A stretch of 64,000 bases of DNA, from sequence record AP019521.1. The stretch is one strand, 5' to 3'. Origin of the DNA: Escherichia phage KIT01. Made by a program: the position numbers and the translations under genes. This document shows, in pieces, positions 6,934 through 38,507 of the stretch. The notes beneath the pieces are model-generated. The model saw nothing but the letters and a program-made list of their open reading frames with translations. It was not told the origin of the DNA and searched no databases. Position 1 is the first letter of the stretch, and the number at the start of each line of letters is the position of its first letter.

Positions 6934-6936
6934 ATA
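6929..6936 (+). promoter_or_regulatory. Late promoter box TATAAATA (gene 22)
   Basis: Exact TATAAATA about 28 nt upstream of the ATG. Confidence 0.5.
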
Positions 6937-6963
6937 TTATTATCTAAACAACAGGACTACAAA

Positions 6964-7779
6964 ATGCTTAAAGAACAACTGATCGCCGAAGCACAGAATA
7001 TTGATGCTTCCGTTGCTCTTGACAGTATTTTCGAATCAGTTAATATTTCTCCGGAAGCAAAAGAAACTTTCGGCACTGTATTCGAAGCTACCGTCAAGCA
7101 ACACGCCGTGAAACTGGCTGAATCTCACATCGCTAAAATCGCTGAAAAAGCGGAAGAAGAAGTAGAGAAAAATAAAGAAGAAGCTGAAGAAAAAGCCGAT
7201 AAGAAAATCCAAGAAGCTGCCGGTCGTTTCCTTGACCACGTTGCTAAAGAATGGATGGCTGAAAACCAGCTGGCTGTTGATAAAGGTATTAAAGCCGAAC
7301 TGTTCGAATCCATGTTGATGGGTATGAAAGAACTGTTTGTTGAACACAATGTGGTTGTTCCAGAAGAAGCAGTAGATGTTGTTGCTGAAATGGAAGAAGA
7401 GCTCCAAGAGCAGAAAGATGAAACCGCTCGTCTGTTCGAAGAAGTTGGTATGCGCGATGCGTATATTAATTACGTGCAGCGTGAAGTTGCTGTTACGGAA
7501 GCAACTAAAGACCTGACTGAATCTCAAAAAGAAAAAGTTAGTTCTCTGGTAGAAGGCATGGATTATTCCGATGCATTCGGTAAAAAAATTGGCGCTATTG
7601 TTGAAATGGTTAAAGGTCAATCTGACGTTGAAAACCCAATCACCGAAGCCGCTATAAATAAAAATGTAGACGATGCTGCGGCACTGAATTACATTTCAGA
7701 AGCAGTTGAAGAAAAAGGCGCTAAGCCTACCCTGTCCTTCGCGGACCTGTCTGCAATCGCAGCATCACGAATTTCTTAA
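6964..7779 (+). CDS. 22: Prohead scaffolding core protein (gp22-like)
   Basis: 271-aa, highly charged E/K/A-rich helical protein immediately upstream of the major capsid gene. Confidence 0.85.
   Translation: MLKEQLIAEAQNIDASVALDSIFESVNISPEAKETFGTVFEATVKQHAVKLAESHIAKIAEKAEEEVEKNKEEAEEKADKKIQEAAGRFLDHVAKEWMAENQLAVDKGIKAELFESMLMGMKELFVEHNVVVPEEAVDVVAEMEEELQEQKDETARLFEEVGMRDAYINYVQREVAVTEATKDLTESQKEKVSSLVEGMDYSDAFGKKIGAIVEMVKGQSDVENPITEAAINKNVDDAAALNYISEAVEEKGAKPTLSFADLSAIAASRIS
7653..7660 (+). promoter_or_regulatory. Candidate late promoter for gene 23, inside the gene 22 3' end
   Basis: TATAAATA about 140 nt upstream of the gene 23 start. Confidence 0.4.
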
Positions 7780-7800
7780 TTTAATAAGGTTATACAACAC

Positions 7801-9360: not shown

Positions 9361-9376
9361 GATATAACCTTATTAT

Positions 9377-9394
9377 GGGAGACTTCGGTCTCCC
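9377..9394. terminator. Stem-loop gggagac-ttcg-gtctccc after gene 23 (between convergent genes)
   Basis: 7-bp GC-rich stem with UUCG tetraloop. Confidence 0.6.
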
Positions 9395-9409
9395 ATTCTT
9401 GTTTCTGTA

Positions 9410-9676
9410 CTATGCAATCTTAACTCGGCGGTTGATGATATCACGGAAGTCAATACGATTTTCTTGGATTTTCAGCCAGTTACCAGATTTGTCTTTGGTA
9501 TGGGTAGAGTATTCACCGTTCCACCAGAAGTCAGTTTCATAAGCCAGAGCTTCGTATTTCTTAACCAATGCATTAACTGCATTACCGTTAGGATTGGTAC
9601 CGAATTTTTCTACCAGAGCTTTGATGTCTTTGTCAAGGTTAGAAAGCGTGGTACGGATAAAGTTTAATTTGTTCAT
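9410..9676 (-). CDS. Hypothetical small protein between genes 23 and 24
   Basis: Minus-strand ORF; start taken at internal ATG preceded by GAGGAGA ribosome-binding site; early-type promoter upstream at about 9706-9735. Confidence 0.45.
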   Translation of the reverse strand: MNKLNFIRTTLSNLDKDIKALVEKFGTNPNGNAVNALVKKYEALAYETDFWWNGEYSTHTKDKSGNWLKIQENRIDFRDIINRRVKIA

Positions 9677-9705
9677 TTTTAATCTCCTCATGTTTTGATA
9701 GGTCT

Positions 9706-9735
9706 ATAGTAACACGACGCTTTTTGTGTGTAAAC
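9706..9735 (-). promoter_or_regulatory. Early-type sigma70-like promoter (GTTTAC -35, about 17-18 nt spacer, TACTAT -10)
   Basis: Reverse complement reads GTTTAC-N18-TACTAT; shares the extended block tatagacctatcaa with promoters near 53.1 and 53.9 kb. Confidence 0.5.
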
Positions 9736-9741
9736 CACTTT

Positions 9742-9749
9742 TATAAATA
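9742..9749 (+). promoter_or_regulatory. Late promoter box TATAAATA (gene 24)
   Basis: Exact TATAAATA about 30 nt upstream of the ATG. Confidence 0.5.
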
Positions 9750-9778
9750 AAATTATATTCTCAATAAGGAAAATAGCA

Positions 9779-11059
9779 ATGGCTAAAATTAACGACCTTT
9801 TAAAAGAGTCGACCATTACTTCGAGTTCTTCGATTGGTCGTCCAAATTTAGTAGCTTTAACCAGAGCTACGACCAAACTTGTTTATACCGACCTTGTAGC
9901 TCAGCAGCGTACTAACCAACCTTTGGCTGCTCTATATGGTATCAAATATCTTACAGAAAAAGACGAATTATCTTTCCAGACGGGTGCTACTTATTCCGGC
10001 GCAGTATCCGCTAAAGACCGTGCCACTATCCCAGTTTTCACTGCAGGCGCTGTTTATGCTAAAGATGATTTGTTCCAATTTGAAAACGTAGTTTATAAAG
10101 CTTTGGTAGCAAGCCCATTTGCCGGTGCTACTGGTGATGAATACGAACAACTTCAAGAAGCTATTGTTAAGTTGACTATCCGTATTATGTCCGAAGCCGC
10201 ACTGACTGAGCGTTTTGAAGGTCCTCAAGAAGTAGATATCTCTGAAGCCAGATTCATCGTTAATAAATGGAACGCCCCGGTTAAATCACGTAAGTTGAAG
10301 AGTACTGTTACCGTAGAACTGGCTCAAGACCTCGAAGCAAATGGTTTCGATGCCCCTAATTTCTTGGAAGACCTCCTGGCTACTGAAATGGCTGATGAAA
10401 TCAACAAAGATATTCTTCAGTCCCTGGTTACGGTTTCCAAGCGTTATAAAGTTGAAGGTTTGTGTGATGATGGCTTAATTGACCTGAGTTATGCTAACTC
10501 ACCGGAAGCTTCTCGCAAGCTTTATGAATTGGTGTGTGAAATGGTTTCTCATATCCAGCGCGCAACCTCTTATACGGCAACTTATGTAGTAGCGAGTACT
10601 CGTGTAGCTGCTGTTCTGGCTGGTTCCGGATGGTTGAGACATACCCCACAGAACGACAAATATCTTTCTGCAAGTGCATACGGATTCCTGGAAAATGGTT
10701 TGCCTCTGTATTGTGATACCAACACGCCGATTGATTATGTTACTGTAGGTGTTAAAGAGGAATTTGGTGGGAAGGAAGCGGTAGGTTCTCTGTTCTATGC
10801 ACCGTATACCGAAGGCCTTGATTTGGCTGACCCTGAACATGTGGGTACATTTAAAGTGGTCGTTGACCCTGAAAGCCTGCAACCATCTATTGCATTAATG
10901 GTTCGTTATGCACTGGCTGCCAACCCTTATACGGTTACTGCTGATGATAAACAAGCCCGTATTATTGATGCGACTAATATGGATTTGATGGCGGGACGTT
11001 CTGATATGTCCGTATTGCTTGGTGTGAAACTTCCTAAAGTTTTGACTGAATTAAACTAA
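9779..11059 (+). CDS. 24: Capsid vertex protein (gp24-like, gp23 paralog)
   Basis: 426-aa ORF after gene 23 with TATAAATA box upstream; size and position match T4 gp24. Confidence 0.9.
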   Translation: MAKINDLLKESTITSSSSIGRPNLVALTRATTKLVYTDLVAQQRTNQPLAALYGIKYLTEKDELSFQTGATYSGAVSAKDRATIPVFTAGAVYAKDDLFQFENVVYKALVASPFAGATGDEYEQLQEAIVKLTIRIMSEAALTERFEGPQEVDISEARFIVNKWNAPVKSRKLKSTVTVELAQDLEANGFDAPNFLEDLLATEMADEINKDILQSLVTVSKRYKVEGLCDDGLIDLSYANSPEASRKLYELVCEMVSHIQRATSYTATYVVASTRVAAVLAGSGWLRHTPQNDKYLSASAYGFLENGLPLYCDTNTPIDYVTVGVKEEFGGKEAVGSLFYAPYTEGLDLADPEHVGTFKVVVDPESLQPSIALMVRYALAANPYTVTADDKQARIIDATNMDLMAGRSDMSVLLGVKLPKVLTELN

Positions 11060-11066
11060 CAAAAAA

Positions 11067-11082
11067 GGGACCTTACGGTCCC
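11067..11082. terminator. Stem-loop gggacc-ttac-ggtccc between convergent gene 24 and rnlB
   Basis: 6-bp GC stem flanked by A-run and T-run (bidirectional). Confidence 0.6.
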
Positions 11083-11090
11083 TTTATCAT

Positions 11091-12098
11091 TTATTTGGAT
11101 ACTAATTCAATCCATACGGCTCGTAAGGTATCTTTTACGCACTCAACAAGCTGCTTTTTAACTTCAACAGGATTTTCTGCGTCGGTTAATTCTAATTCTT
11201 CACGGGCAGCTTCTTCAAGGATATCCTGGACTGTCAAGCCCATTACCTTTCCAAAATCCTTCGGCGATACTTCACCAATCTTACTGATGACATTGTTAAT
11301 GCGGTTAACAGTCACATAATCAGTGAATTGCCACATCAAATCCATATCATCTTGGGATAAAACCACTGCAACTTTAATAGGCTTATCAGACTTTTTCTTC
11401 TCGCTGAATTTAGAGTTCTTACATTTAATCGCTACACGATTTCCATTAGGAAGCCAGGTAGGAACATCAGGTTTCAGTACAAAGCCTTCAGCCGTGAATA
11501 CTTTACCTTCTACCTTAGGAATAAAGTCTGTCGAGTTTGCAATAGTTAAGCCAGCGTTATCCACTGCAAAATTATAATCGGGAACAACCGAATCAAAATC
11601 ATTAGGAAGTTTAATAAGGTCTTCAAAGCTACCAGTGGCCAGACATGGAGCTACCTTAAACTTATGAATAATACAGAAGGCTTCCATCAATGTATCGGTT
11701 AGAACAGATTCAGTACCGTCTTCCTTAGTAACTCGGATATCAAACACATAAAAGTCTTTATCACCGTAGTCCACATTCTTCTGAATACCTGTCCCAGCGA
11801 ATTCGCCATAAATCTGGTACGACTGGTAATTAATCGATTCAATTAGTTGTTGAACGGATTTAATAGAATCAGCATAGTTCTTAAGTACAATTTCATAACC
11901 ATAGAAATCTTCAGCAGGGAGAATTGGGCCAGTGCGCTTGGCGCATGTGACTGCGTCACGTTCTATGATTAAACTAAAGTTGGTTCCATGAATCTTCTCA
12001 CGTGCTACCCATTCACCGCCAGTCAAACCATTAGTACGGAGTTTTTCGATAAACTTATTGTTGTAGTGGTTTTCGAGACTGCTATATTTCTTGAACAT
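11091..12098 (-). CDS. rnlB: RNA ligase 2 (Rnl2)
   Basis: 335 aa; N-terminus [19 protein letters not shown]... and nucleotidyltransferase motif KIHGTN match remembered T4 Rnl2; same position as T4 rnlB. Confidence 0.9.
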
Positions 12099-12212
12099 AA
12101 ATCACCATAATAAATATAATTAAATAGAAGAGCTAGTAATCTTCTGTCACCAAGCCAAATGGTTTAACGGAAGGACCTAGACCCATTATAACACATCTAA
12201 ATTTAAAGCATA

Positions 12213-12434
12213 TTACTTTGAACTAGAACGCGCTTTGCGCCGAACCTTGTTGTTCAATCTTTTACGATAAACAACCTTTTCTTTCGATTTAAACTTGGCC
12301 TTGGCTTGTTCCACATCAACCCATGCTTTGGCCATGTCCTTAGCGGTACCACCTAATTTTTTAGCAATTTCTATAAAATTCAGTCCAGATTCGTGTAAAA
12401 AATGTACTTTAACCTTATCCATAACAATTCTCAT
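12213..12434 (-). CDS. Hypothetical small basic protein (possible helix-turn-helix; T4 24.x slot)
   Basis: 73-aa ORF with K/R-rich C-terminus; early-type promoter (GTTTAC-18-TAGTAT) immediately upstream on minus strand. Confidence 0.5.
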   Translation of the reverse strand: MRIVMDKVKVHFLHESGLNFIEIAKKLGGTAKDMAKAWVDVEQAKAKFKSKEKVVYRKRLNNKVRRKARSSSK

Positions 12435-12451
12435 ATTAAGTGCGTAAATCT

Positions 12452-12481
12452 ATACTACCATGAGAATTTTAACTTGTAAAC
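12452..12481 (-). promoter_or_regulatory. Early-type promoter for the small basic ORF at 12213-12434
   Basis: Reverse complement GTTTAC-N18-TAGTAT; overlaps the region just upstream of the collagen-like gene on the other strand. Confidence 0.45.
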
Positions 12482-12491
12482 AGGAAATTTT

Positions 12492-14054
12492 ATGGCACAA
12501 ACTACCGGTGAAAAAGAAGGCGTATTTTACGGTTATTCTCTTTATGATTTGAATAAAGAAAAACTAATAACCTTTGACGAATTACTTACAGGTATTAAAG
12601 GCGACGCTGGGGAAAATGGTGATATCGGTCCTCAAGGTCCTATTGGTTTACCTGGCCCGCAAGGTATCCAAGGTGAAGTTGGGCCTAAAGGTCCTAAAGG
12701 CGATATCGGTCTTCAGGGTATAGCAGGGCCTGCTGGTCCTCAAGGTCCACAAGGTGAACGAGGAATACAGGGCTTAACAGGACCACAAGGCCAAATAGGT
12801 ATTGCAGGGCCACAAGGCGTCAAAGGTGATACCGGTCCTCAAGGTCCTGTCGGCCCACAAGGTCCAGCAGGTGTACAAGGCGTACAAGGCGTCAAAGGTG
12901 ATACAGGTCCAGCAGGCCCTGCAGGTTTAACTTGGAAAGGAACTTGGGACTCAGCTACGGAGTATTCAATAAATGAAGCCGTAGGATATGGAGGTTCTTT
13001 GTATTTTGCTACAGAAACCGTGCCTGTCGGCGAAATCCCATCTTTAGCCTCCGACTATTGGGAAGTTTTGGCTACCGAAGGTCCAGAAGGTCCTCAAGGA
13101 CCACAAGGCATTCAGGGACCTATGGGTCCTCAGGGTATTCAAGGTCCTTTGGGTCCTGTAGGCCCGCAAGGTATCCAAGGACCAAGAGGCTTACAAGGAC
13201 CTGAAGGCGAAATAGGACCTCGTGGTTTGCAGGGGTTAAAAGGTGAAACAGGTGCTCAAGGACCGCAGGGCATTCAAGGGCTTAAAGGCGAGCCAGGGGC
13301 CCAGGGACCTGATGGTATTGGTTTAACTGGGCCTCAAGGACCAATTGGCCTTACAGGTCCAGCGGGCCCTCAGGGTATAAGAGGAGCCATAGGACCTAAA
13401 GGTGATACAGGTTTAACTGGTGCCCAAGGCGAGCAAGGTGCCCCAGGTGTTAAAGGTGATACCGGTCCTCAAGGATTACAAGGGGTTAAGGGAGATAAAG
13501 GGGATAAAGGAGATACTGGTGCCCAAGGATTACAAGGGGTTAAAGGAGATAAAGGAGACAAAGGAGATACCGCGCCTCATAATAAAGTATACTATTTAGG
13601 ACAAACCCCATGGTTCCACAACTCGTATGCTAAACATCAACTTCCAGGAACCAATGATTGGCGGATTACTGTAACAGGTACAACCAACTTTGAATCCTAT
13701 TCATCAGGTAACGTTAGAATAGGATTTTTTAATAATACTTCTGCATCCAGATCATGCACGTTTACATTGATTTCTTATGATGCTAACGGCTCACAGAAAA
13801 ATACAAAATACAATACTGTGCATAATGTTATGGTTCAAAGTTCTTATTATAAATTCTGGGGTGATAATGCCGATTCATTTATTATAGGCGGCACTTCTAA
13901 TATATGTGAAGGGTTTTTTACTGATAATGCCACCAATAAAACCTATCATATAAAATTTATAGGATTGGTCAAAGCCACAGCTACGGTACCAGGCAAATAT
14001 GTTCTTGAAGTTGAAGAGATTATTTCTGGTGGCGAACCTGTAAAATATTATTAA
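12492..14054 (+). CDS. Collagen-like repeat protein: two Gly-X-Y blocks split by a W/Y-rich module, plus a C-terminal globular domain
   Basis: 520-aa ORF; two long uninterrupted Gly-X-Y tracts (about aa 37-146 and 198-364); intervening [27 protein letters not shown]...DYWEVLA segment; AGGAAA ribosome-binding site before the ATG. Confidence 0.8.
12600..13570 (+). repeat. Gly-X-Y triplet (collagen-type) coding repeats, two tracts split by a non-repeat module
   Basis: 9-nt periodicity of GGN-NNN-NNN codons visible directly in the sequence within the 12492-14054 ORF. Confidence 0.85.
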
Positions 14055-25157: not shown

Positions 25158-26246
25158 ATGAAAGTAAAAGAACTTGACTTTGATGTAGCCTCCTTGTTTA
25201 AAGGAGGTTCAAAGACCTCCGCAGGTCAATCTAAAACACAAGCAATAAAAACCACGGTAACCGCTCAGTACCCAGCTGAGCGTGCTTCAGGTAATGATAC
25301 CTCAACCGATATGGTATTAAACGACCTCTATAAAAATGGATTGCTTTTTACTGCATATAATTTTAGTTCTCGTGTATCTCCGGATTTGCGTAACGACCGT
25401 TCGAGTCAAATGACTAAAAAGTTCTCAAGTGCAGCCAGCAAATTAACAGGCAATAGTGGAACATATAGTGCTGTTAAAAACTTATTTGGTGGAAATACTA
25501 AGGGCGTTAAATTTGATACCCAAGCCTTAGCCAATATTCTTTTACCTCGTTCTAAATCTGATGTGGATTCCGTGTCACATAAATTTAACGATGTAGGCGA
25601 ATCATTGATTACTAAAGGTGGTGGTACTGCTACAGGTATTTTGAGTAACGTTGCAAGTACTGCGGTATTTGGTGCATTGGAATCTGTGACTAATGGTGTA
25701 ATGGCTGATTCAGGTGAGCAGATATACACCACCGCTCGTAGTATGTACGCAGGGCCGGATAACCGTACTAAGGTATTTACCTGGGAAATGACTCCACGAA
25801 ACGCCCAAGACCTTATCCAGATTATTAAAATATATGAAATCTTTAATTACTATTCTTATGGCGAAACAGGCAATTCAGCCTTCGCAGGTGAATTAAAAGA
25901 TAAGATTGATACTTGGTACCGTTCTACATTTAAAAAAGAAGCTATTGACAAGTTTGATGGTAAGCTATTAGGGGAAAGTATTACAAGCTTCCTTTCTAAT
26001 GTTATTGTGGTAAGTAACCCGACCATTTGGTATATCCGAAACTTTGGCGATAGCAGTTCATATGATGGTCGTGAAGATATTTTTGGTCCATGCCAAATCC
26101 AGAGTATACGATTTGATAAAACCCCTGATGGCCATTTTAACGGATTAGCTATTGCTCCTAACTTACCATCTACATTTAGTTTAGAAGTTACTTTCCGTGA
26201 AATTATTACTCTTAACCGTGGCTCACTTTATACGGAAGGATTCTAA
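25158..26246 (+). CDS. 48: Baseplate tail-tube cap gp48
   Basis: 362-aa ORF after gene 29; size and order as in T4. Confidence 0.8.
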   Translation: MKVKELDFDVASLFKGGSKTSAGQSKTQAIKTTVTAQYPAERASGNDTSTDMVLNDLYKNGLLFTAYNFSSRVSPDLRNDRSSQMTKKFSSAASKLTGNSGTYSAVKNLFGGNTKGVKFDTQALANILLPRSKSDVDSVSHKFNDVGESLITKGGGTATGILSNVASTAVFGALESVTNGVMADSGEQIYTTARSMYAGPDNRTKVFTWEMTPRNAQDLIQIIKIYEIFNYYSYGETGNSAFAGELKDKIDTWYRSTFKKEAIDKFDGKLLGESITSFLSNVIVVSNPTIWYIRNFGDSSSYDGREDIFGPCQIQSIRFDKTPDGHFNGLAIAPNLPSTFSLEVTFREIITLNRGSLYTEGF

Positions 26247-27199
26247 TGTATACTTTACAAGAATTTCAGAACCAGGCAATTAATATTGACCTACAGAGGA
26301 ATAACCTGTTTAGTGTAGTATTTGCTACGGTTCCTTCTTCTAAATCCCAGGCGCTCCTCGACCAGTTCGGTGGAGCTTTATTTAACAATATCCCATTGAA
26401 TACCGATTTGTTTGGTATTACACAAGGAGAGTTGACCCAAGGTGTTACGACATTAGTGACAGCGGGCACTCAGAAGTTGATTCGTAAGTCAGGCATAAGT
26501 AAATATCTGATTGGAGCTATGTCATCCAGGGTTGTGCAGAGCTTACTAGGAGAGTTTGAAGTAGGTACATATCTGATGGATTTTTTCAATATGGCCTATC
26601 CTACGGCAGGTCTTTTAGTCCACGCCGTTAAAATCCCGGATAATACTTTGAACTATGAAATGGATTTGAACCACAACTCGCCTAACATCAAAATTACCGG
26701 AAGAGAATATTCTCCATTGGTATTAAGCTTCCGTATGGATTCTGAAGCTGCTAACTACCGTGCTTTTAATGATTGGGTCAATAGTGTCCAAGACCCTATT
26801 ACACAATTAAGAGCATTGCCTGAGGATGTTGAAGCCGACATTCAAGTCAACCTTCATTCTCGTAATGGATTACCCCATACAGTAGTAATGCTTAATGGTT
26901 GTGTTCCTGTTGGTGTTTCGTCACCAGAATTATCTTATGACGGTGATAACCAAATTGCTTCGTTTGATGTTACATTTGCTTATAGAAGTGTACAGACGGG
27001 TGCAGTTGGCAAACAAGCTGCTTATGAATGGTTGGAAGATAAAGTCCTTAAAGGCGTGGCAGGGATAAGTGAGAGCAATTCGCTGAGTTCTTCAGTAGCT
27101 AAATTAAGCCGACTTTCAGGAGCTTCTAGTGGATTAACAGGATTAGTTAATACATTTGGTGGGCGTGCTATTAATAATGGAATATCGAGGTTGTTATAA
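26246..27199 (+). CDS. 54: Baseplate tail-tube initiator gp54
   Basis: 317-aa ORF after gene 48; followed by a bidirectional stem-loop. Confidence 0.8.
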   Translation: MYTLQEFQNQAINIDLQRNNLFSVVFATVPSSKSQALLDQFGGALFNNIPLNTDLFGITQGELTQGVTTLVTAGTQKLIRKSGISKYLIGAMSSRVVQSLLGEFEVGTYLMDFFNMAYPTAGLLVHAVKIPDNTLNYEMDLNHNSPNIKITGREYSPLVLSFRMDSEAANYRAFNDWVNSVQDPITQLRALPEDVEADIQVNLHSRNGLPHTVVMLNGCVPVGVSSPELSYDGDNQIASFDVTFAYRSVQTGAVGKQAAYEWLEDKVLKGVAGISESNSLSSSVAKLSRLSGASSGLTGLVNTFGGRAINNGISRLL

Positions 27200-27206
27200 C
27201 AAAAAA

Positions 27207-27224
27207 GGAGAGCATATGCTCTCC
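27207..27224. terminator. Palindromic stem-loop ggagagcatatgctctcc between gene 54 and the alt-region ORF
   Basis: 18-nt perfect palindrome flanked by A-run and T-rich sequence. Confidence 0.55.
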
Positions 27225-27233
27225 TTTAGGGGT

Positions 27234-27524
27234 TTATTTACGGAACGAAATGAAACCTGCTGTGGTCATTAGTGGTTGCTTTTTAACAAAGACCGTGATA
27301 GAAATAGGAGCTTCAGATTCAAGCTGACCGGTTACTACACCATTAAAGATATTTTCAGTTTGTTCTGGATGAGAAAAATTCTCAACAGGTCGGATATCAA
27401 ACTGTTTGTCTTCACCGAAAACTCGACGTAATTCATTACCTACTGCACTGTCAAACTCTTCGGAAGCAGGGATAACGTTTTCAACCACCAGTTCTTGACC
27501 ATTAAAACGGAATGCAGATTTCAT
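27234..27524 (-). CDS. Hypothetical protein downstream of alt array
   Basis: 96-aa minus-strand ORF between the gene 54 terminator and the alt array. Confidence 0.45.
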   Translation of the reverse strand: MKSAFRFNGQELVVENVIPASEEFDSAVGNELRRVFGEDKQFDIRPVENFSHPEQTENIFNGVVTGQLESEAPISITVFVKKQPLMTTAGFISFRK

Positions 27525-27581
27525 AATGTTCTCCTCATGTTTGTGTAAGGTAATAGTACCACATCCTTGTGGTGTTGTAAA

Positions 27582-29705
27582 CTACATTTTGAATTTATTT
27601 GATAAAGAAGAGATATCCAAAGACGCGGCAAGGATTTCCATAGCTTCGTTGCTTTCAGAAACGGATTCATTAACCAAGAATTGACTGAATCCATCCATCA
27701 GGCGAACTTCACCAGTTTCCATCAAATGGTCACCATCGTAAACAGATTCGCTGAGCTCTGAAGGAGGCGTTACGGTAGCTTCCATAAGGTATTTGTGAGA
27801 TACTCTATCATTCATGGCAAAAGCCGCTACTTTATCAACCTTCAACAATAATCCACGCGGAAGGATAATTTCTGCTTCTTCGGCATATTCTGTAAGGTCA
27901 CCAGGAGCGATAACTTTAACTGCTTCAGCACCTCGAATAACCATACCAATTTCAGCAATTCTATCCGCAGGACCTTCAGGTGCAATTGGATTACCGAACT
28001 CGTCTTCTTCCCATTCTACCTCTTCGTCATCGACTTCACCCACATCAGATGAACTACCACTAGCCAATTTAAACAACTCATCAGCAGAGGATAAAGAACC
28101 TTCACCACCAACAAAAACGGCTTGGTTGTCGAGGGCCATATAATTTTTACCAAATTCACCAAAGATGTTAGGCTTTAATGAGGCTGACACAAAGTTCTTA
28201 AAGTAAAATGTTTTGTTATCGATATTATGGCGCAGAATTTTGTATGGCAAATCCTGACCACGATACAAAATAGTACCCTTAGGAAGTTTAATACCCTTAG
28301 TAAATGCTGAGTCTAAATCCTTAATCAATTTAATAGCCGTTGTATTGTTTTCGGATTCAGGTTTACCTAAAAGGAATAAGTTCATAGGAGCATATTCAGC
28401 CGCGCAATATTCAATAATAGCATTGCTTTCGTCTTTGGTTAGGTCCTTAGGTTTAATGAGCTCGCCTGAATAAGCATATGCATCACTAATAGAATCGTTA
28501 ACCAGTTTATAAACGGCTTCCATAGCGAAAGCAATTCGAGATGCTTTCTCTGAAGGGGAACCCTTAAAACGGGTACTCAGGTTATTAACAATTTTCTTAA
28601 TAATATCCAGACTATTGGTTGTATTGATTTGCGAAAGGCCACTTAAAAGTCTATCGACTTCTGTATTAAAAAATGCCATATTATTAGAGTAAATTTCAAA
28701 CCCTTGTTTATCTCTATTAGCATAATTTAGTTTAAATTTACTATCAGTCATTAAAGCGTGTGTGAGAGCAATAGTGTATCTAAAGTTGGCAAGGTCCTCG
28801 CTCTTAGATTTAAACTGAGAAGCCTGGCGCATTTTAGTAATAGCACCTTTTTTAAAGTTCTGACTAATCTGTTCAATACCTTCGTTCTCAGGGCCTTCAG
28901 CCGTGTGAACCGGTACAGAAGCTTCAAACTCGTTATAAACCTGCAATTCTTTAGGGGACAAAGTTTCAGGCTCAGCAGTAGAATACTGCGCGGCCGCTGC
29001 CATACGACGCGAAATCTTAGTACGAGTAATAACAGCCTTATCAGTACGTTTCTCTTCAACTTGTGCAATAGATGCCGCTACGGCTTCGACCTTACTTACG
29101 GCCTGGCCAGTTTTCTTAGAAACATACACTTCGCCAACTTTAGACTCAACTTTAGTATAAAGATCGGCATTAATTTCAGGCATACCCTTGATATCTTCAA
29201 TATTAGCACCACGACGTACTAAAAGAACGTAGGTATGTTTTCCGCTGAATTGGAACATGTCGTCAACAACTTTAAACTTACCACCGGTACGAGCCATAGC
29301 CAAACGAGCTAATACGCGCTGGACGGTAGGACCTTTACCTTTCATTTTCTTAGTAGGGAAACGGAACAAAACCGCGTCCATTTTAAGTTTGTTTACTTGT
29401 TCGTATATGGTATCGAAAATGGTGTTCAGTGTACCGAGTGGATCGGTACCCAAACCACCCTTGAGTTCTGCCGGAGCGCCTTTAGCAGATAAACTCATTA
29501 AGATAACATGGACGTACTTATCACCATTTTTAACCATCTTAATAGCGTCGCCTTCAGACGCATAAGATACCATACGTGCTACTAAATTGTCATTACCAGG
29601 AGCATGTACCGCAAAAATCTGCGGTACGCCTGAGCCAGGTTTAAGATTTGTTACTGGGTAATTTTTTTTATCGCTTTTATCAAAAACTTCGTTTAAATTT
29701 TCCAT
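27582..29705 (-). CDS. alt: Alt-type ADP-ribosyltransferase, paralog A (most 3' in transcription order)
   Basis: 707 aa; N-terminal about 230 aa aligns with remembered T4 Alt; catalytic signatures R (LYRGQ), S-A-S (YFKNFVSASLKP), E-x-E (EAEIILPRG); conserved C-terminal DGDHLMETGE. Confidence 0.8.
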   Translation of the reverse strand: MENLNEVFDKSDKKNYPVTNLKPGSGVPQIFAVHAPGNDNLVARMVSYASEGDAIKMVKNGDKYVHVILMSLSAKGAPAELKGGLGTDPLGTLNTIFDTIYEQVNKLKMDAVLFRFPTKKMKGKGPTVQRVLARLAMARTGGKFKVVDDMFQFSGKHTYVLLVRRGANIEDIKGMPEINADLYTKVESKVGEVYVSKKTGQAVSKVEAVAASIAQVEEKRTDKAVITRTKISRRMAAAAQYSTAEPETLSPKELQVYNEFEASVPVHTAEGPENEGIEQISQNFKKGAITKMRQASQFKSKSEDLANFRYTIALTHALMTDSKFKLNYANRDKQGFEIYSNNMAFFNTEVDRLLSGLSQINTTNSLDIIKKIVNNLSTRFKGSPSEKASRIAFAMEAVYKLVNDSISDAYAYSGELIKPKDLTKDESNAIIEYCAAEYAPMNLFLLGKPESENNTTAIKLIKDLDSAFTKGIKLPKGTILYRGQDLPYKILRHNIDNKTFYFKNFVSASLKPNIFGEFGKNYMALDNQAVFVGGEGSLSSADELFKLASGSSSDVGEVDDEEVEWEEDEFGNPIAPEGPADRIAEIGMVIRGAEAVKVIAPGDLTEYAEEAEIILPRGLLLKVDKVAAFAMNDRVSHKYLMEATVTPPSELSESVYDGDHLMETGEVRLMDGFSQFLVNESVSESNEAMEILAASLDISSLSNKFKM

Positions 29706-29708
29706 TAT

Positions 29709-31754
29709 TTACCCTTGGGTGAATTTTTCTGGGGTTTCGTCAAAATTAATACATGAAGCTAAAATAGGCATTATATCCACCTTGGTCGATTTGACGAATG
29801 AATCAAAAGACACAGGGTTGTCGGTCTCTGTTTCTACGCCTTGGTAAACAACCAATTCGCCGGTTTCCATCAATGCATCACCATCATAGATAACCGCATT
29901 TTCTGCTAGTTGGTCTGTGGTCTGGATGTCAGCTTCCAATAATTTGGTGTTGTAGTTTCCTTTATATGAGGCATCTGTAATTTTAGTAATCTTAACAGTA
30001 GTTCCACGTGGAAGAATAACCTCTTGTTCTGTTGGAGAACCTGACAATTCACCGGGCACAATTACGTTAATAGAGTCTGCACCGGAAATTTTCCAACCGA
30101 TGTTCATCATTGTATTTTCGGAACTCGTCAGCATACTTGGAAGAACAATTTCATTATCGCCTTGGAAAGATGTCCCAGCACGATAGTCCTGATGAACTGC
30201 GGCCATTGCGACGTTTGATACCCAGCCGCCAAAGATAATCGGCTTAAGGGACGTTGATACATAGTTCCTGAAATAAAACAATTTTGAGTGTTTGATTTTA
30301 TCAAAAGTGTTAACATTTAAATATTGACCACGCCAAAGTGTAATATCAGGTGGCAATTTATGGCCAATTTCAAATGCCGCATCCATATCATTAATTACTT
30401 CAATTACACGATAACTATCAATAAATTCTGCATCCTCTTCATAATAATTACCCAACAAATAATTATTAACATCGGTATAATATTGGCCGCAATAAGAAGA
30501 AATAGCCTCACGCTGCTCATACTCAAATCGATTATCGCTATAACTGGCTGTAAAATGCATAACACTTTCTGACGCTTCATTAGCAAAGTCGCTAACAGCA
30601 GCACTTATACGTTGAGCATACTCTTGTTCCCAAAGCTCTGCCGCATATTCTGCCGCATCCATATTAGGAGGAGCCTCATTCATTTTTCTTTCGATAAATG
30701 CAGCTTTGCGAAGGTTAAGAACCTCTGCACATGATTCGGCAAAAATCTGCATCTGCTTCATACTGCCGACAGGAGCACGTTTAAGTTCACGATGCATACG
30801 GTTAAAAATTGGGTCGGAGTCTTCGACTCGAATTTCTTCTTTCCAAACACCGTTTGCTCGCATAGCCATATCTGCCGCGCGCATACGCTCCATAGTATTC
30901 GTTTCAGAAGGTTGAATAAAAATTTCTAGTTCTTCATAATCATCGATAAGTTCTGCTGTTGCTGGGGCGCTAAATTTTGATGCCTCTGCATCAATCTCAT
31001 CCCAACCTTCCGGAACTTCATCTCGAGGAGAATACTGGGCTGCGGCTACAGCACGCCTAGAAATCTTGGTAGTAGTAATAACAGCCTTATCCGTACGTTT
31101 TTCTTCGACTGCAGCTATACTAGCAGATAGTGCTTCTATTTTGGTTACTGATTGGCCTGTTTTCTTGGATACATAAACCTCACCAACTTTAGACTCAACC
31201 TTAGTGTAAAGGTCTGCATCAATTTCAGGCATACCTTTTATGTCCTCAATATTAGCTTGTTTACGAACCAGTAAAACGTATGTATGTTTGCCTGTAAATT
31301 GATACAAATCATCGACAACTTTAAACTTGCCGCCAGTACGAGCCATCGCCAAACGTGCCAATACACGTTGAACAGTAGGACCTTTACCTTTCATTTTCTT
31401 GGTAGGGAACCGGAAAAGAACTGCATCCATACGAAGAGCTTTAACTTGTTCGTATACAGTATCAAAAATGGTATTCAGCGTACCAAGTGGGTCAGAACCT
31501 AACCCGCCTTTCAACTCGGCTGGGGTACCCTTAGCAGACAAACTCATCAAAATAACATGAACATATTTATCGCCCGGCTTAACCATTTTAATAGCGTCTC
31601 CTTGAGACGCATAAGATACCATACGAGCAACCAGGTTATCGTTACCTGGTGCTTGGATAGAGAAAATCTGTGGAATACCGGAACCCGGTTTAAGATTTAC
31701 TACTGGATAGTTTTTAGCGGAATCACTATCAAAAACCTCGTTTAAATTTTCCAT
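29709..31754 (-). CDS. Alt-type ADP-ribosyltransferase, paralog B
   Basis: 681 aa; same N-terminal module; LWRGQ, YFRNYVSTSLKP, EQEVILPRG motifs; divergent central region. Confidence 0.8.
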   Translation of the reverse strand: MENLNEVFDSDSAKNYPVVNLKPGSGIPQIFSIQAPGNDNLVARMVSYASQGDAIKMVKPGDKYVHVILMSLSAKGTPAELKGGLGSDPLGTLNTIFDTVYEQVKALRMDAVLFRFPTKKMKGKGPTVQRVLARLAMARTGGKFKVVDDLYQFTGKHTYVLLVRKQANIEDIKGMPEIDADLYTKVESKVGEVYVSKKTGQSVTKIEALSASIAAVEEKRTDKAVITTTKISRRAVAAAQYSPRDEVPEGWDEIDAEASKFSAPATAELIDDYEELEIFIQPSETNTMERMRAADMAMRANGVWKEEIRVEDSDPIFNRMHRELKRAPVGSMKQMQIFAESCAEVLNLRKAAFIERKMNEAPPNMDAAEYAAELWEQEYAQRISAAVSDFANEASESVMHFTASYSDNRFEYEQREAISSYCGQYYTDVNNYLLGNYYEEDAEFIDSYRVIEVINDMDAAFEIGHKLPPDITLWRGQYLNVNTFDKIKHSKLFYFRNYVSTSLKPIIFGGWVSNVAMAAVHQDYRAGTSFQGDNEIVLPSMLTSSENTMMNIGWKISGADSINVIVPGELSGSPTEQEVILPRGTTVKITKITDASYKGNYNTKLLEADIQTTDQLAENAVIYDGDALMETGELVVYQGVETETDNPVSFDSFVKSTKVDIMPILASCINFDETPEKFTQG

Positions 31755-31757
31755 TAT

Positions 31758-33845
31758 TTACCCTTGGATGAATTTTTCTGGGATGTCATAGAGGTCTATG
31801 CATGAAGCCAAAAGAGACAGTACATCAAACCGTGTAGATTTAACAAATGAATCAAAAGATACGGGGCTTTCGGAAGTATCGAAATCATCTTGATATACGA
31901 CCAACTCACCGGTTTCCATTAGTACGTCACCATCATATACCACAGATTCTTGAAGCTCATCTGATGTCATAACTTCAGCTTGAATAAATTTATTGTTAGA
32001 CCCAGCCCCAGAACCAGTATTGGCTGATGCATCCACGATTTTATCTATTTTTACAAGTAGCCCGCGTGGTAAAATTATTTCCTTTTCGTTGGCATGCATG
32101 CTTAATTGGCCAGGATAAATCACGTTAACCTTATGAGCGCCACTAATAGCCCAGCCAACATCAACCCGGATTTGATCCGGTGCATACATATGTGTACGCA
32201 CTTGACTATCAGAGATGGTAACGCCTTCGTCATTATTATCAACGTTTAATTCTTTTCGAACATCATCGGAAGCAAGACCAATAGCCGCATTCTCTTTAAA
32301 GCCACCAAAAATGATTGGAGCCAATGAGGTTGAAACATAGTTTCTAAAATAGAATACCTTATTTTTAACTAATGCTTCGTAGATAGGCGCGCGCAAAGAT
32401 TGGGCTCTATAAACCATTATTCCTTCAGGTAAACGGTCACCATTTTTAAAGGCCGAATCCATTCCATCAATAGCACGTTTAACTTCGCTTTCGTCCAAAA
32501 CTTCATAAAAGCCTGGTTTATAACGGCCAAGAAGGACATTGTTGATATCAACATAAGCTGAAGAGGCGTATTCTCTGATAGCTCGTTTTTCTGCAAGTGT
32601 ATATTGTTTAGGGTCTCGAGATGTTGTTATATTAAGAATTTCTCTAGTTGATTCTATAGCGTATGTATACATTATCTTAGACAAGAATGAAGACTTACGT
32701 TGTTTCCATACTCTTTCACTGTTTTCATTCAATATCTCTTTTTCCAAATGGAAATTGTCTTTTCTATAATCTTCAAACCAATCACTTTTAATAGATTCTG
32801 CGATTTCATTAGCAGCTTCAACAAAGGCAGCTAAAGCTTTAACTGACGTGGTTTTTTCATTTTTAATTTTTTTGACAAATTTTTCTAAAGAAGAGTTAAT
32901 TTTATCACCGTAAGAAACTTCATCCGCAAATTTAAATGAATCATCCATAGTATTATAAATTTTAAAATCAATAGCCGTAGCCAGCTTATCCTTAGCTGTT
33001 TCGGATGATAATGATAATTCAACTTCGGCTGCTTGTGGAATTAATTCCGCCGTAGCAGGTGCACTGAACTCATTGGCAGTTTGTTCATATTTCTGAAACA
33101 ATTCACCTTCATTACGGTCTGCTTCTAATGACTGACTTGCTGCAATAGCACGACGGGAAATCTTAGTTTTGGTTATAACCATTTTATCAGTGCGACGTTC
33201 TTCAACTTTAGCAATACTGCCGGCAATAGCAGTTTCTTTAGTAACCTGCATGCCTTCTTTTTTAGAAATATAAACTTCACCGACATCAGAATCTACCTTA
33301 GTATATAATTCAGCATTAATTTCTGGTATACCCTTAATATCTTCAATGTTAGCTTGTTTACGAACTACCAGAATATAAGTATGTTTGCCGGTGAATTCAT
33401 ACATGGCTGGAACTACTTTAAATCGTCCACCAGTTTTCTGTGCTACTAAACGTTGAATAATACGTTGAACGATAGGACCTTGTCCTTTCATTTTCTTGGT
33501 AGGGAACCGGAACATCACGGCATCCATACGAAGAGCTTTAACTTGTTCGTAGACAACACTAAAGATAGTATTAATTGCATCGATAGGAGTAGGGCCAAGG
33601 CCACCCTTAAGTTCTGCTGGAGTACCTTTAGCTGATAAACTCATCAGAATAACGTGGGCATATTTATCACCTAATTTAACTTGTTTGATCGCGTCTCCTT
33701 GAGACGCATAAGATACCATACGAGCAACTAATTGGGACTCTGCATCGCCAATCTTCCAAATCTGGGGTACTTTAAGTTTAGGGTTCAAGTTTACTGTAGG
33801 CAGTGTGCCTTCGGACTCAAACACTTCATTTAATTGTTCGGTCAT
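31758..33845 (-). CDS. Alt-type ADP-ribosyltransferase, paralog C
   Basis: 695 aa; closest of the three to remembered T4 Alt (REYASSAYVDINNVLLG, VYRAQ, YFRNYVSTSLAP, EKEIILPRG). Confidence 0.8.
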   Translation of the reverse strand: MTEQLNEVFESEGTLPTVNLNPKLKVPQIWKIGDAESQLVARMVSYASQGDAIKQVKLGDKYAHVILMSLSAKGTPAELKGGLGPTPIDAINTIFSVVYEQVKALRMDAVMFRFPTKKMKGQGPIVQRIIQRLVAQKTGGRFKVVPAMYEFTGKHTYILVVRKQANIEDIKGIPEINAELYTKVDSDVGEVYISKKEGMQVTKETAIAGSIAKVEERRTDKMVITKTKISRRAIAASQSLEADRNEGELFQKYEQTANEFSAPATAELIPQAAEVELSLSSETAKDKLATAIDFKIYNTMDDSFKFADEVSYGDKINSSLEKFVKKIKNEKTTSVKALAAFVEAANEIAESIKSDWFEDYRKDNFHLEKEILNENSERVWKQRKSSFLSKIMYTYAIESTREILNITTSRDPKQYTLAEKRAIREYASSAYVDINNVLLGRYKPGFYEVLDESEVKRAIDGMDSAFKNGDRLPEGIMVYRAQSLRAPIYEALVKNKVFYFRNYVSTSLAPIIFGGFKENAAIGLASDDVRKELNVDNNDEGVTISDSQVRTHMYAPDQIRVDVGWAISGAHKVNVIYPGQLSMHANEKEIILPRGLLVKIDKIVDASANTGSGAGSNNKFIQAEVMTSDELQESVVYDGDVLMETGELVVYQDDFDTSESPVSFDSFVKSTRFDVLSLLASCIDLYDIPEKFIQG

Positions 33846-33881
33846 AATAATTCCTCTTTAATAACCTTATTTATGCCAGAA

Positions 33882-33897
33882 AAGGCCCGAAGGCCTT
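33882..33897 (-). terminator. Stem-loop aaggcc-cgaa-ggcctt upstream of alt paralog C
   Basis: 6-bp stem with GNRA-like loop; may be a terminator or RNA processing/stability element. Confidence 0.4.
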
Positions 33898-34066
33898 AAA
33901 GTGGTAGCAACGTACGGTATACTTCGAATGTCGGGCCTTTTTCGTAGCCATCAAATGTGTCTTTAAAATCGGCAAAAGCTATTTCGTCCTCAAAATCAAG
34001 GATGATTTGAGAGACTGCCGTGGTATTTGTATTTGATACAACAACTGTTTCTAAATAAACTTTCAT
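33896..34066 (-). CDS. Hypothetical small protein
   Basis: Minus-strand ORF between ligase and alt array; start set at the internal ATG to avoid a 41-nt overlap with gene 30. Confidence 0.35.
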   Translation of the reverse strand: MKVYLETVVVSNTNTTAVSQIILDFEDEIAFADFKDTFDGYEKGPTFEVYRTLLPL

Positions 34067-34067
34067 A

Positions 34068-35591
34068 TTATAACCCAGTTTGAGACCAATCGCCAAATAC
34101 ATCTTCAAATGTATCAGCTTCTGTTTTATCGAAACGCCAACCTTTAATGATTGGAAGGAAAATACCTACAGTATCGGTACGTCCTTTAGAATGAACCCAA
34201 CCATTACATTCACAGTCGGCAATACGGCCAATCAATTTACCTTCACGAGCTTGTTTCATAAGAAGTTCACGGTCTAAATCAGGACGGTCTTCCAATGGAA
34301 TCAATACCTTTTTACCTGATTTATCTTTCTTATGGGTGGTATCTTTAAAGCCTGAACCACAGTCACTTGTAATTCTACGACAACGTGATACCAATTCAAC
34401 ACCACCAAGTTTGTTAGGGTCTTTCGAGTGTTCATAGTAACCTACTACTTCTAAAGCGATATCGATTACTTCTTTGAACTTGATAAGATTCTTAGAACGG
34501 CGGTTTTCCCAGTAGGAGTCCATGTTCTTAAGGATAATACCTTCCAGACCTTGGTCGACATATTTCTTATAAACGACTTTAGCTTCTTCAAGATTATTAA
34601 CCCACCGGTTTTCGATAGCTTCAACACGCGTTGTACCGTGCAATACGACATTATGAGCAACCATAAGTTCTAAGGCTGTAAAGCGTACATCGTACTTATC
34701 GCCTTTAATTTTACCTTCGGAATACACGACATCCAGTGGAACATAATCCCATGCCTGTAATACCATACCGGCAGCTTCAGTAGCGGAAATAGTTCCTTGG
34801 AGAGCTTTATTAGCCAGGCCATTTGACGTAGAACGATCGGCGACAGTTTGGAATTCCTTAGCCTTACTTAATTCAGGAAGTTCCTCATCAAACATACTAA
34901 ACAAATCATTAGATGCTTTAGGTTCTACTTTAGGAGTATGGTAAACTAATTCGCCATCAATCATAACACCATTAGGATGGCGTTGTCGAGCTTCTTCGGT
35001 CATGGCCATTAATTCAGCAGCTAAAAGATGAAGCCCTTGGTATTCATTACCACCACGAGTAAGGAATGTCACACCATCGTTACGAACTTCAGCAAAACAA
35101 CGGGCGCCATCAGCTTTTAATTGAGCAAACGCTGGCCATTTAATATTTTTCTTAATCAAATCTTCATCATAAGAGCTAGCTAACATTTGAGGTTGTTCAG
35201 GGATTAAACCTTTCCAAACCTTGTTAGCAATGGAAATCGATGCACCGCATTCAAGGTCGCGCATCATTACACGACGTAATACCTCGGCATCTTGAGCCTT
35301 AGCATCGGCAATGATTTGAGCCAGTTCTTCAATAGCTGCATTACCGGTAACCTTACGAGTGGCTAATGTGAATTCAGCGAAATCAAGAAGGTCTTCAAGA
35401 GTAATCATACCAAAGGATTGAGACGTAAATCCAGGTTCAGGCCACTTTTTAATACCGTAGTTCAGACGACGAGTATAAGCCATACGATATACGCGTTTCA
35501 GAAGCTCATTATCCTTTTCACGAGCAATAATAGCTTCTTTAGCTTTAGTAGAATCAATAGAAGCAATTTCGTTTAAAATATCTAAAATCAT
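34068..35591 (-). CDS. 30: ATP-dependent DNA ligase (gp30)
   Basis: 507 aa; adenylation motif KADG (FAQLKADGARC); position as T4 gene 30. Confidence 0.9.
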   Translation of the reverse strand: MILDILNEIASIDSTKAKEAIIAREKDNELLKRVYRMAYTRRLNYGIKKWPEPGFTSQSFGMITLEDLLDFAEFTLATRKVTGNAAIEELAQIIADAKAQDAEVLRRVMMRDLECGASISIANKVWKGLIPEQPQMLASSYDEDLIKKNIKWPAFAQLKADGARCFAEVRNDGVTFLTRGGNEYQGLHLLAAELMAMTEEARQRHPNGVMIDGELVYHTPKVEPKASNDLFSMFDEELPELSKAKEFQTVADRSTSNGLANKALQGTISATEAAGMVLQAWDYVPLDVVYSEGKIKGDKYDVRFTALELMVAHNVVLHGTTRVEAIENRWVNNLEEAKVVYKKYVDQGLEGIILKNMDSYWENRRSKNLIKFKEVIDIALEVVGYYEHSKDPNKLGGVELVSRCRRITSDCGSGFKDTTHKKDKSGKKVLIPLEDRPDLDRELLMKQAREGKLIGRIADCECNGWVHSKGRTDTVGIFLPIIKGWRFDKTEADTFEDVFGDWSQTGL

Positions 35592-37675: not shown

Positions 37676-38041
37676 TTAGATATCGAATTCGTTCAGAACT
37701 ACATCAAAGATTGCTTCCAGGTGTTCAGGTTTAGCTCGGTTGCTCAGGATGTGACGAATCCAGGTTTTAACCAGAAGCTTACGATTAACGCCGTTCCAGC
37801 AAGGATGGGTACCTAAATCACGTTGACGGAAATCGTCATCTAAAGCGATTTTAAAAGTAGAACCTTCCATTGTGATTGAAACCGTAATACCATTTTCAAA
37901 GCGCATATAAACGTAGTTAGGAGTCATGCACTGTTCGATTTCGCACACGGTGCCGTTGTTGTGTTTCCACAGGCAAATAACTTCAGAAGAACCAGCGATA
38001 CCGTTAGAAACATATTTACGTTCGAAGTTGATGTAGTTCAT
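37676..38041 (-). CDS. Hypothetical protein
   Basis: 121-aa ORF preceded by a conserved promoter/leader cassette with GGAG ribosome-binding site. Confidence 0.5.
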   Translation of the reverse strand: MNYINFERKYVSNGIAGSSEVICLWKHNNGTVCEIEQCMTPNYVYMRFENGITVSITMEGSTFKIALDDDFRQRDLGTHPCWNGVNRKLLVKTWIRHILSNRAKPEHLEAIFDVVLNEFDI

Positions 38042-38100
38042 TTTATTCTCCAGTTTGTTTTCGTATTATTTGGTACAGGTCTATAATAACACAACCTGTA
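38041..38100 (-). repeat. Promoter/leader cassette, copy 1
   Basis: ttattctccagtttgttttcgtattatttggtaca...tctata; near-identical to 38448-38507; contains ribosome-binding site, -10 element and a 9-bp inverted repeat. Confidence 0.7.
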
Positions 38101-38114
38101 CCAAAGTAAAACAT

Positions 38115-38447
38115 TTATTTCACAACATTCCAATTTTTCATATCAAGTTTACCAACTTTTTTCATCTGAGCAATCAGACGTTCAGCGCGTGTACGGGCAT
38201 TAACGTAATAGAATTCACCAATTTTGTTTTCTTCAATACGGCCAGTAATTACAGTTTTCAGTTCATAAATCCAACCTGTAAAGAAGTTGTGAAGCTCGAT
38301 GGTAAATGTGAAATCAGTACCCATACCTTCAGTTGTTTCAACTTCGATGATATCACCTTCAACTGCAGTCAGGACCCACATGGTTTCTTGATATCCGCCG
38401 TTGAAACATTTAGCTTTAACAGATGCATTCAGATTTACAGTTTTCAT
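38115..38447 (-). CDS. Hypothetical protein
   Basis: 110-aa ORF preceded by a second copy of the same leader cassette. Confidence 0.5.
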   Translation of the reverse strand: MKTVNLNASVKAKCFNGGYQETMWVLTAVEGDIIEVETTEGMGTDFTFTIELHNFFTGWIYELKTVITGRIEENKIGEFYYVNARTRAERLIAQMKKVGKLDMKNWNVVK

Positions 38448-38507
38448 TTTATTCTCCAGTTTGTTTTCGTATTATTTGGTACATGTCTATAGTATCACGC
38501 CTACCGG
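38448..38507 (-). repeat. Promoter/leader cassette, copy 2
   Basis: About 40 of the first 45 nt identical to copy 1. Confidence 0.7.

Follow-up and report, generated by a model that had tools for sequence, protein, structure and literature searches.

Escherichia phage KIT01 carries three consecutive alt genes, altA, altB and altC (A, B and C below), within the 64,000-nucleotide (nt) stretch of sequence record AP019521.1 that was analysed here (the window). The array is probably composed of three old alt paralogs in which rare out-of-register recombination gives rise to conversion patches, hybrid genes and changes of copy number, a reading to which we assign a probability of roughly 0.8. The T4-type recombination machinery of the phage would occasionally pair direct repeats of about 0.9 kilobases (kb) out of register, with two possible outcomes. 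In short-tract conversion, altB would have overwritten three patches (38, 32 and 29 nt) in the first ~245 codons of altC, the N-module. In a crossover, one 2049-nt unit would be dropped or added and a hybrid gene left behind; among relatives, these products would be the genes with a B-type 5′ part and an A-type 3′ part, B(5′)/A(3′), and the two-copy arrays. The events are probably intragenomic rather than exchanges between co-infecting phages, and a UvsX-type pathway is presumably responsible for them.

A tandem array with a recurring direct repeat

The three genes lie on the minus strand, and each encodes a protein of two main parts, an N-module followed by an effector with an ADP-ribosyltransferase (ART) domain. 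Lengths are given in amino acids (aa), and the gene assignments rest on the open reading frames (ORFs), PF03496 and PHROG 802, with motifs in addition for altA.

27582–29705, minus strand: altA, 707 aa, Alt-like ADP-ribosyltransferase, last gene of the array
29709–31754, minus strand: altB, 681 aa, middle gene of the array
31758–33845, minus strand: altC, 695 aa, first gene of the array
28971–29705, minus strand: N-module of A, ~245 aa, with an LNE protease-site motif near the N-terminus, ending at TKISRRA, beyond which A–B identity drops
31020–31754, minus strand: N-module of B
33111–33845, minus strand: N-module of C, putative recipient of the B-derived patches

Across the first ~245 codons, protein identity is 86% for A–B and 66–70% for A–C and B–C, with DNA identities of ~75–80% and ~65–70%, respectively. 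Beyond the TKISRRA boundary, the A–B protein identity is ~25%, and the following ~380 codons (linker and ART) share 25–33% protein identity among the three copies. Conservation resumes in the final ~55 codons, in B and C. A homeologous direct repeat of ~0.9 kb and ~78% identity, made up of tail, spacer and N-module, recurs every 2.05–2.1 kb, the periods of the repeat family being 2049 and 2097 nt. The TKISRRA motif stands at the boundary between N-module and effector in every Alt type, T4 included, and the N-module is presumably the part responsible for delivery in the phage head.

An exhaustive search for exact repeats over positions 27500–34000 yielded the following runs, all on the minus strand.

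33691–33728 (C) and 31594–31631 (B): 38-nt B–C run, candidate conversion patch 1
33520–33551 (C) and 31423–31454 (B): 32-nt B–C run, candidate conversion patch 2
33484–33512 (C) and 31387–31415 (B): 29-nt B–C run, candidate conversion patch 3, encoding FRFPTKKMKG
31738–31767: 30-nt junction run comprising the end of C, the stop, the 3-nt spacer and the start of B; its partner at the B end and A start is 29689–29718
29326–29351 (A) and 31375–31400 (B): 26-nt A–B run, inside which the B/A junction of phage WG01 maps
29556–29576, 31605–31625 and 33702–33722: 21-nt run common to all three genes, encoding RMVSYAS

An earlier note on this DNA had placed shared blocks in the 5′ thirds of the three genes, which is correct, as these are minus-strand genes and their 5′ thirds are the high-coordinate ends. 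The two strings that it quoted are exact in both B and C: CCTTTCATTTTCTTGGTAGGGAACCGGAA at 31387–31415 and 33484–33512, and CATCCATACGAAGAGCTTTAACTTGTTCGTA at 31424–31454 and 33521–33551. Neither is expected by chance, as judged from shuffles of the window. A close variant in A was also claimed; it exists for CCTTTCATTTTCTTGGTAGGGAACCGGAA, with two mismatches at 29338–29366, whereas for CATCCATACGAAGAGCTTTAACTTGTTCGTA no variant was found within three mismatches. The two strings fall in the B–C runs of 32 and 29 nt; the 38-nt B–C run and the 30-nt junction run had been overlooked.

The lengths of these runs were compared with a codon-usage null, in which the protein alignment is fixed and every codon is redrawn from the codon usage of the window (2000 simulations), and with a Sawyer-type permutation of polymorphic sites. 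The longest B–C run exceeds the codon-usage null (P = 0.0005), and the length of the second-longest was reached in none of the 2000 simulations; the permutation gave P = 0.009, 0.0004 and <0.0001 for the three B–C runs. The longest A–B run (26 nt, P = 0.09) and the longest A–C run (21 nt, P = 0.06) show no excess over the codon-usage null, and the permutation detected no signal for either pair. Identity beyond what codon usage would produce is therefore a property of the B–C pair, and not of A–B or A–C. Among identical residues of the N-modules, the fraction encoded by the same codon is 0.51–0.55, against 0.43 expected from codon usage. Synonymous sites outside the runs are near saturation, so that the paralogs are old and only a few short patches are unusually alike.

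Patches in altC and hybrid genes in relatives

KIT01 belongs to the JS98-like T-even phages of the genus Dhakavirus, and the array was placed in an alignment of 60 alt genes that covers 24 Dhakavirus loci and in which altC can be compared with 23 other C-type genes. Among these loci, the three B–C runs are private to KIT01. In patch 1, the C gene of the window has B bases, including a nonsynonymous GAA>CAA change, and all 23 of the other C-type genes differ at 3–6 positions; the private alleles at alignment nt 150, 154 and 159 equal B and are missing from all 23. Patches 2 and 3 are again B-type in the window (GCT in place of AAG; CGG and ACC), and the GCT codon of patch 2 is private to window C among C-type genes. 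In total, the first 750 nt of window C contain 18 bases that none of the 23 other genes carries. Half of these (9/18) agree with window B; every one of the nine is situated within or beside the three runs, with B-matching private bases at alignment nt 150, 154, 159, 300, 319–321 and 348.

Phage C6 possesses a B gene with the same run-2 sequence as window B and a C gene that lacks it, which gives the direction of conversion as B into C. The combination found here, over-long B–C tracts together with donor-type alleles in the acceptor that are confined to those tracts, is that of ectopic gene conversion. Since the runs are private and window C bears B alleles in them, the blocks are read as products of conversion and not only as substrates; the alignment is best accounted for if they are scars that short-tract conversion by B left in C. 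Exact-pattern scans for the converted C allele in IMG/VR, and for the 32-mer of run 2 in IMG/VR and the JGI metagenomes, returned no match.

A survey of copy number by tblastn with the N-module identified two alt copies in ~21 Dhakavirus phages and three in ~14, and one in most other genera; altB is the gene missing from the two-copy relatives. Two apparent larger arrays were rejected. The 'fourth' copy of LHE83 is a gene split by the origin of the record, and the five copies of Escherichia phage 04086 reduce to a broken last gene with a partial duplication. This last alt gene (10975–13534 of the 04086 locus) is interrupted, with residues ~125–190 partly duplicated internally; it is a genuine product of unequal crossover or else a fault in the assembly of this 177-kb record, which is poorly annotated.

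Painting of the relatives with 147 A/B diagnostic sites reveals hybrid genes in several lineages. In IME281, WG01, PSD9/E33 and PSD2002, the array ends with a clean B(5′)/A(3′) hybrid, and the point of the switch from B to A differs among the four. In UGJNEcP3, QL01 and LQ5, the last gene has a B-type 5′ tip only; AnYang has reciprocal A/B patches; and the JS98 group has an older mottled haplotype in common. JS98 itself is without B, and the first ~200 nt of its 'altb' are B-type, the remainder being A-type or mottled. At least five distinct B/A junctions exist, at alignment nt 51–57, 182–191, 198–206, 267–272 and 357–374. Genes assembled in silico from three-copy phages as B[1..x]+A[x..] differ from the hybrids by 17–43 mismatches over ~2.1 kb, compared with 53–98 for pure A. 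The hybrids are as expected from a single unequal crossover between the N-modules of B and A, with loss of the 2049-nt unit, or from an equivalent exchange during co-infection. Copy variants that differ by whole units and hybrid genes at the junctions, the two signs of unequal crossover, are thus both present, and the contraction, expansion and chimeric alt genes that had been predicted from the window are indeed found among relatives, as two versus three copies and as B/A hybrids. All hybrids are of the A/B type, and the 24 loci contained neither a B/C chimera nor a deletion mediated by B/C. The identity runs of the hybrid-forming pair, A and B, are no longer than chance in the KIT01 genome. 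The proposal that the quoted B–C blocks are a pre-existing substrate for recombination is consequently not supported as it stands: they are private to the lineage, have the look of conversion products and are accompanied by no B/C hybrids.

A number of observations weigh against recombination between neighbouring paralogs as the full account. The patches are known from one genome, and a consensus or assembly artefact is formally possible. Private changes that are not of B type cluster in window C at alignment nt 273–303, just 5′ of run 2. The run-2 motif GTTAAAGCTCTTCGT is also present in a distant metagenomic phage with a single alt, L033 (ENA metagenome scaffold, 9001–11087), a T-even-like contig whose alt is split into two ORFs (371 and 340 aa); the N-module of L033 has 77% identity to window C and an exact 35-nt match to window B around run 2. 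Together, the cluster and the L033 motif make an unsampled third donor possible for patch 2. The near-saturated synonymous divergence argues that the events would be recurrent but rare, and homogenisation rare and short; on the same grounds, the 'frequent' unequal crossover of the earlier note is not upheld. The WG01 group has four different B/A junctions and no four-copy ancestor was found, so that some of these junctions may stem from co-infecting phages and not from intragenomic unequal crossover. Finally, only one of the five junctions (WG01, nt 357–374) falls in a long run, that of 26 nt, and the others fall in intervals of 5–8 nt. Long identity blocks as preferred crossover sites, which fit this one junction only, were accordingly discarded; with most junctions in such short intervals, crossovers appear to use the whole ~0.9-kb, ~78%-identical block.

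Recombination between co-infecting phages, with unsampled donors, is the alternative that survives best, although we regard it as unlikely to account for the patches and hybrids in place of events within one genome. It draws on the run-2 motif in L033, on the private non-B cluster that adjoins run 2 and on the four WG01-group junctions, and the two altC alleles (C and C′) and the relation of the B effector to the Alt of Gaprivervirus (described below) indicate that cassettes do pass between phages at this locus. However, all nine B-matching private bases of window C match exactly a B gene located 2.1 kb away in the same genome, which makes the neighbour the simplest donor, and the alleles in runs 1 and 3 are otherwise confined to B-type genes. 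Co-infection, moreover, shares the recombination of N-modules with the intragenomic reading, and would change where the exchange occurred but not its kind.

It is improbable that the blocks merely reflect protein conservation and codon bias in old paralogs without any recombination. This would suit the A–B and A–C runs, which stay within the codon-usage null, the location of runs on the most conserved peptides (RMVSYAS and FRFPTKKMKG) and the near-saturation of synonymous sites elsewhere, but the B–C runs exceed both the codon-usage null and the permutation expectation. In addition, the peptides are equally conserved in the 23 other C-type genes, yet these have 3–6 synonymous or nonsynonymous differences from B per run. 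Still less credible is an artefact of assembly or polishing, in which reads of one paralog were placed on another to create false patches or copy numbers. Paralogous repeats are a classic source of misplaced reads, and the broken last gene of 04086 may be such an error; however, the paralogs are ~78% identical around the patches, so that reads of 100–150 nt would map uniquely, C-specific bases flank the patches within 1–10 nt, and arrays of two and of three copies have turned up repeatedly in phages that were sequenced independently, among them JS98 from the Sanger era. Selection at the nucleotide level, for a promoter, ribosome-binding site, RNA structure or packaging signal, has the least to commend it: it is plausible for the 30-nt junction run alone, which holds a stop, a spacer, a likely Shine–Dalgarno context and the next start, but the B–C runs are not conserved in the orthologous C genes of the 23 relatives, on which count a functional constraint on them was rejected, scans of the array for sigma-70 promoters and terminators gave no excess over shuffled expectation, and no exact T4 late-promoter octamer TATAAATA occurs in the array.

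Locus, family assignment and other features of the window

Five minus-strand ORFs lie between gene 54 and gene 30, namely the alt.-3 homologue, altA, altB, altC and a small alt.1-like ORF. The array thus occupies the position of alt in T4, with gene 30 and alt.1 on one side and alt.-3 and gene 54 on the other. Spacers between consecutive alt genes measure 3 nt, with no small ORFs in between. The record nearest to the array is that of UGJNEcP3, at 96.8% identity across it. The flanking features are as follows.

26246–27199, plus strand: gene 54
27204–27227, minus strand: terminator-like hairpin downstream of alt.-3, where the transcription unit probably ends
27234–27524, minus strand: alt.-3 homologue (DUF5498), which adjoins the array on the right in every relative
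33851–33897, minus strand: putative upstream region of the array, with a hairpin (33897–33882), the late-promoter-like CATAAATA (33875–33868) and a Shine–Dalgarno sequence (33859–33851)
34068–35591: gene 30, DNA ligase

All three proteins contain the ART exoenzyme domain PF03496 (E = 2.6e-17 for altA, and 8.6e-21 and 5.3e-29 for the other two); altA has an insertion inside this domain and matches profile positions 14–134 only. Each matches PHROG 802, 'Alt-like RNA polymerase ADP-ribosyltransferase', from end to end (E ≤ 2e-248, with altA at 2e-248), and tblastn gives full-length matches to T4 Alt at 32–43% aa identity, altC being the closest of the three (43%). In the alignment, the R / S-x-S / E-x-E signature is kept by all three (YRGQ/WRGQ/YRAQ, SAS/STS/STS and EAE/EQE/EKE), and the E-x-E of each is followed by (I/V)ILPRG. 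A large-scale protein search returned two relatives only, one of which is the L033 homologue (P0001), which bears PF26846, Tevenvirinae_ADPRT, and provided an outgroup for run 2. A Pfam search with the N-module alone produced no match, in a library without the PF26846 model; a sequence search of the PDB with altC likewise produced none, and exact-protein look-ups of altC and altB found no identical record.

T4 Alt is a non-essential head protein, present at ~40 copies per head, of which both termini are propeptides removed by the prohead protease gp21; it is injected and modifies Arg265 of the RNA polymerase alpha subunit (PMC9026906). Features that would agree with delivery in the virion are readable in the window proteins, as an LNE motif at residues 4–7 and a conserved C-terminal tail. 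This conserved start and conserved tail fit the cleavage of T4 Alt at both termini.

Outside the array, the longest exact direct repeat in the window measures 41 nt (38037–38077 and 38443–38483, at a spacing of 406). It lies directly upstream, on the minus strand, of two small ORFs (37676–38041 and 38115–38447), bears their Shine–Dalgarno sequence and ATG, and adjoins a stem-loop with a TATAAT box (hairpin at ~38074–38104). The arrangement resembles the promoter-stem-loop (PeSL) shuffling cassettes that Arbiol et al. 2010 described. Further direct repeats, exact over 20–25 nt, are situated at 11061/14927, 12654–13524 and 53134/53845, one cluster being inside a 520-aa ORF (12492–14054).

Effector exchange and comparison with known systems

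At this locus, effectors are also exchanged as whole modules. The altB effector (aa ~240–645) is 80% identical in aa, and 65–95% in nt, to that of the single Alt of the Gaprivervirus phage VR25, and VR7 also has this effector; the N-modules of altB and VR25 Alt are 39% identical in aa and ~50% in nt. This pattern indicates a probable exchange of the effector module across genera, with the boundary at TKISRRA. The altC gene occurs in two allelic forms that are 40–70% different in the middle and >90% identical at both ends. The WG01 group has a 631-aa D type in the first position of the array. Effectors resembling that of T4 Alt (65–69% aa) are found behind an A/B-type N-module in copy 2 of Bp7 and behind a C-type N-module in copy 1 of VR5, and the effector in copy 2 of VR5 is unlike any other sampled. 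The counterparts at the same locus are listed below.

VR25 (vB_EcoM_VR25, L014), 6995–9046: Alt counterpart of altB (29709–31754)
Bp7 (L028), 5378–7432: further effector type
VR5 (L017), 7001–9055 and 9059–11107: further effector types

It is tempting, although the balance is slightly against it, to regard the T-even alt locus as a polymorphic array of injected effectors. The genus-specific N-module, serving head packaging and maybe having a GNAT-like fold, would be the recombination handle, and TKISRRA and the C-terminal tail would flank warheads exchanged inside a genome, during co-infection and from one genus to another, giving each phage one to three different enzymes that presumably answer host defences. 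The variable effectors probably differ in their host targets, which makes the array a reasonable place to seek differences in host range or anti-defence. Alt copy number and type vary between otherwise very similar therapeutic E. coli phages, and the annotated 'altb' of JS98-type phages is a hybrid, orthologous to neither parent. The array provides a nucleotide-resolved natural example of a T4-type phage reshaping an accessory array through scars, hybrids, unit loss and effector swaps. It changes no general view, as recombination between tandem paralogs is expected in T4-like phages: the paralogy of alt is already known and the process is textbook, and it is the example that is new and well resolved. 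A literature search for alt paralog recombination or Dhakavirus alt arrays found only a remark by Nolan et al. 2006 and general papers on T4 recombination; it turned up no account of the conversion patches, of 'altb' as a hybrid or of effector exchange across genera.

The T4 alt locus is in the same place as the KIT01 array, between gene 30 (ligase) and gene 54, and T4 Alt is the same two-part protein, with LNE at the N-terminus and a conserved C-terminal tail. However, T4 has one intact alt, whereas KIT01 has three intact divergent ones with effectors that are 25–33% identical to each other. By tblastn, T4 alt.-1/alt.-2 (L023, 6927–7261) is what remains, with a frameshift, of a second alt copy, reduced to its first ~115 residues, as a result of which tequatroviruses score two N-module places in the survey; alt.-1/alt.-2 and a full-length copy in 44RR were noted as alt duplicates by Nolan et al. 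2006 (PMC1524935). The 'alta' and 'altb' genes of JS98, JS10 and IME08 belong to the same genus and occupy the same positions; JS98 has been annotated with both since 2007, and its alta is the ortholog of window C.

In T4 itself, the phage's own system recombines short homologies and thereby alters copy number and removes accessory genes (Singer 1982; Wu, Wu and Black 1991; Srikant, Guegler and Laub 2022; PMC2839356, PMC9391042). Patches of <50 base pairs (bp) are sufficient (Singer et al. 1982, cited in PMC2839356). Microhomologies of 6–10 bp give rise to tandem amplifications and to deletions of several kb in the course of a few passages, and a compensating deletion that removed alt has been reported (PMC9391042). 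The T4 cases involve microhomologies of 2–10 bp or patches of <50 bp under laboratory selection, whereas the present case involves a natural repeat of ~0.9 kb and ~78% identity, with comparative evidence. Interlocus gene conversion and concerted evolution, as in rRNA operons and segmental duplications, share with altB–altC the short donor-to-acceptor tracts, the private alleles that match a paralog and the significance in Sawyer-type tests. Unlike concerted evolution, homogenisation in the alt array is minimal, comprising three patches of ~30–40 nt in copies near synonymous saturation.

Polymorphic toxin systems (Rhs, CdiA; MuF-fused phage effectors, Iyer et al. 2022, PMC9503650) combine a conserved delivery part with interchangeable C-terminal enzymes, and so does the alt array, in which TKISRRA is comparable to their short conserved boundary motif. 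A conserved module, a boundary motif and C-terminal enzymes traded between lineages are all found at the alt locus. Delivery is by the phage head in the alt array and by a secretion system in polymorphic toxins, and the N-module is not MuF. Unlike those systems, the alt array contains no cognate immunity genes or orphan C-terminal toxin cassettes, the only known stump (T4 alt.-1/alt.-2) being an N-module, and for this reason it is not classed as one of them. The resemblance of the alt array to a polymorphic-effector system is one of mode of evolution, not of membership.

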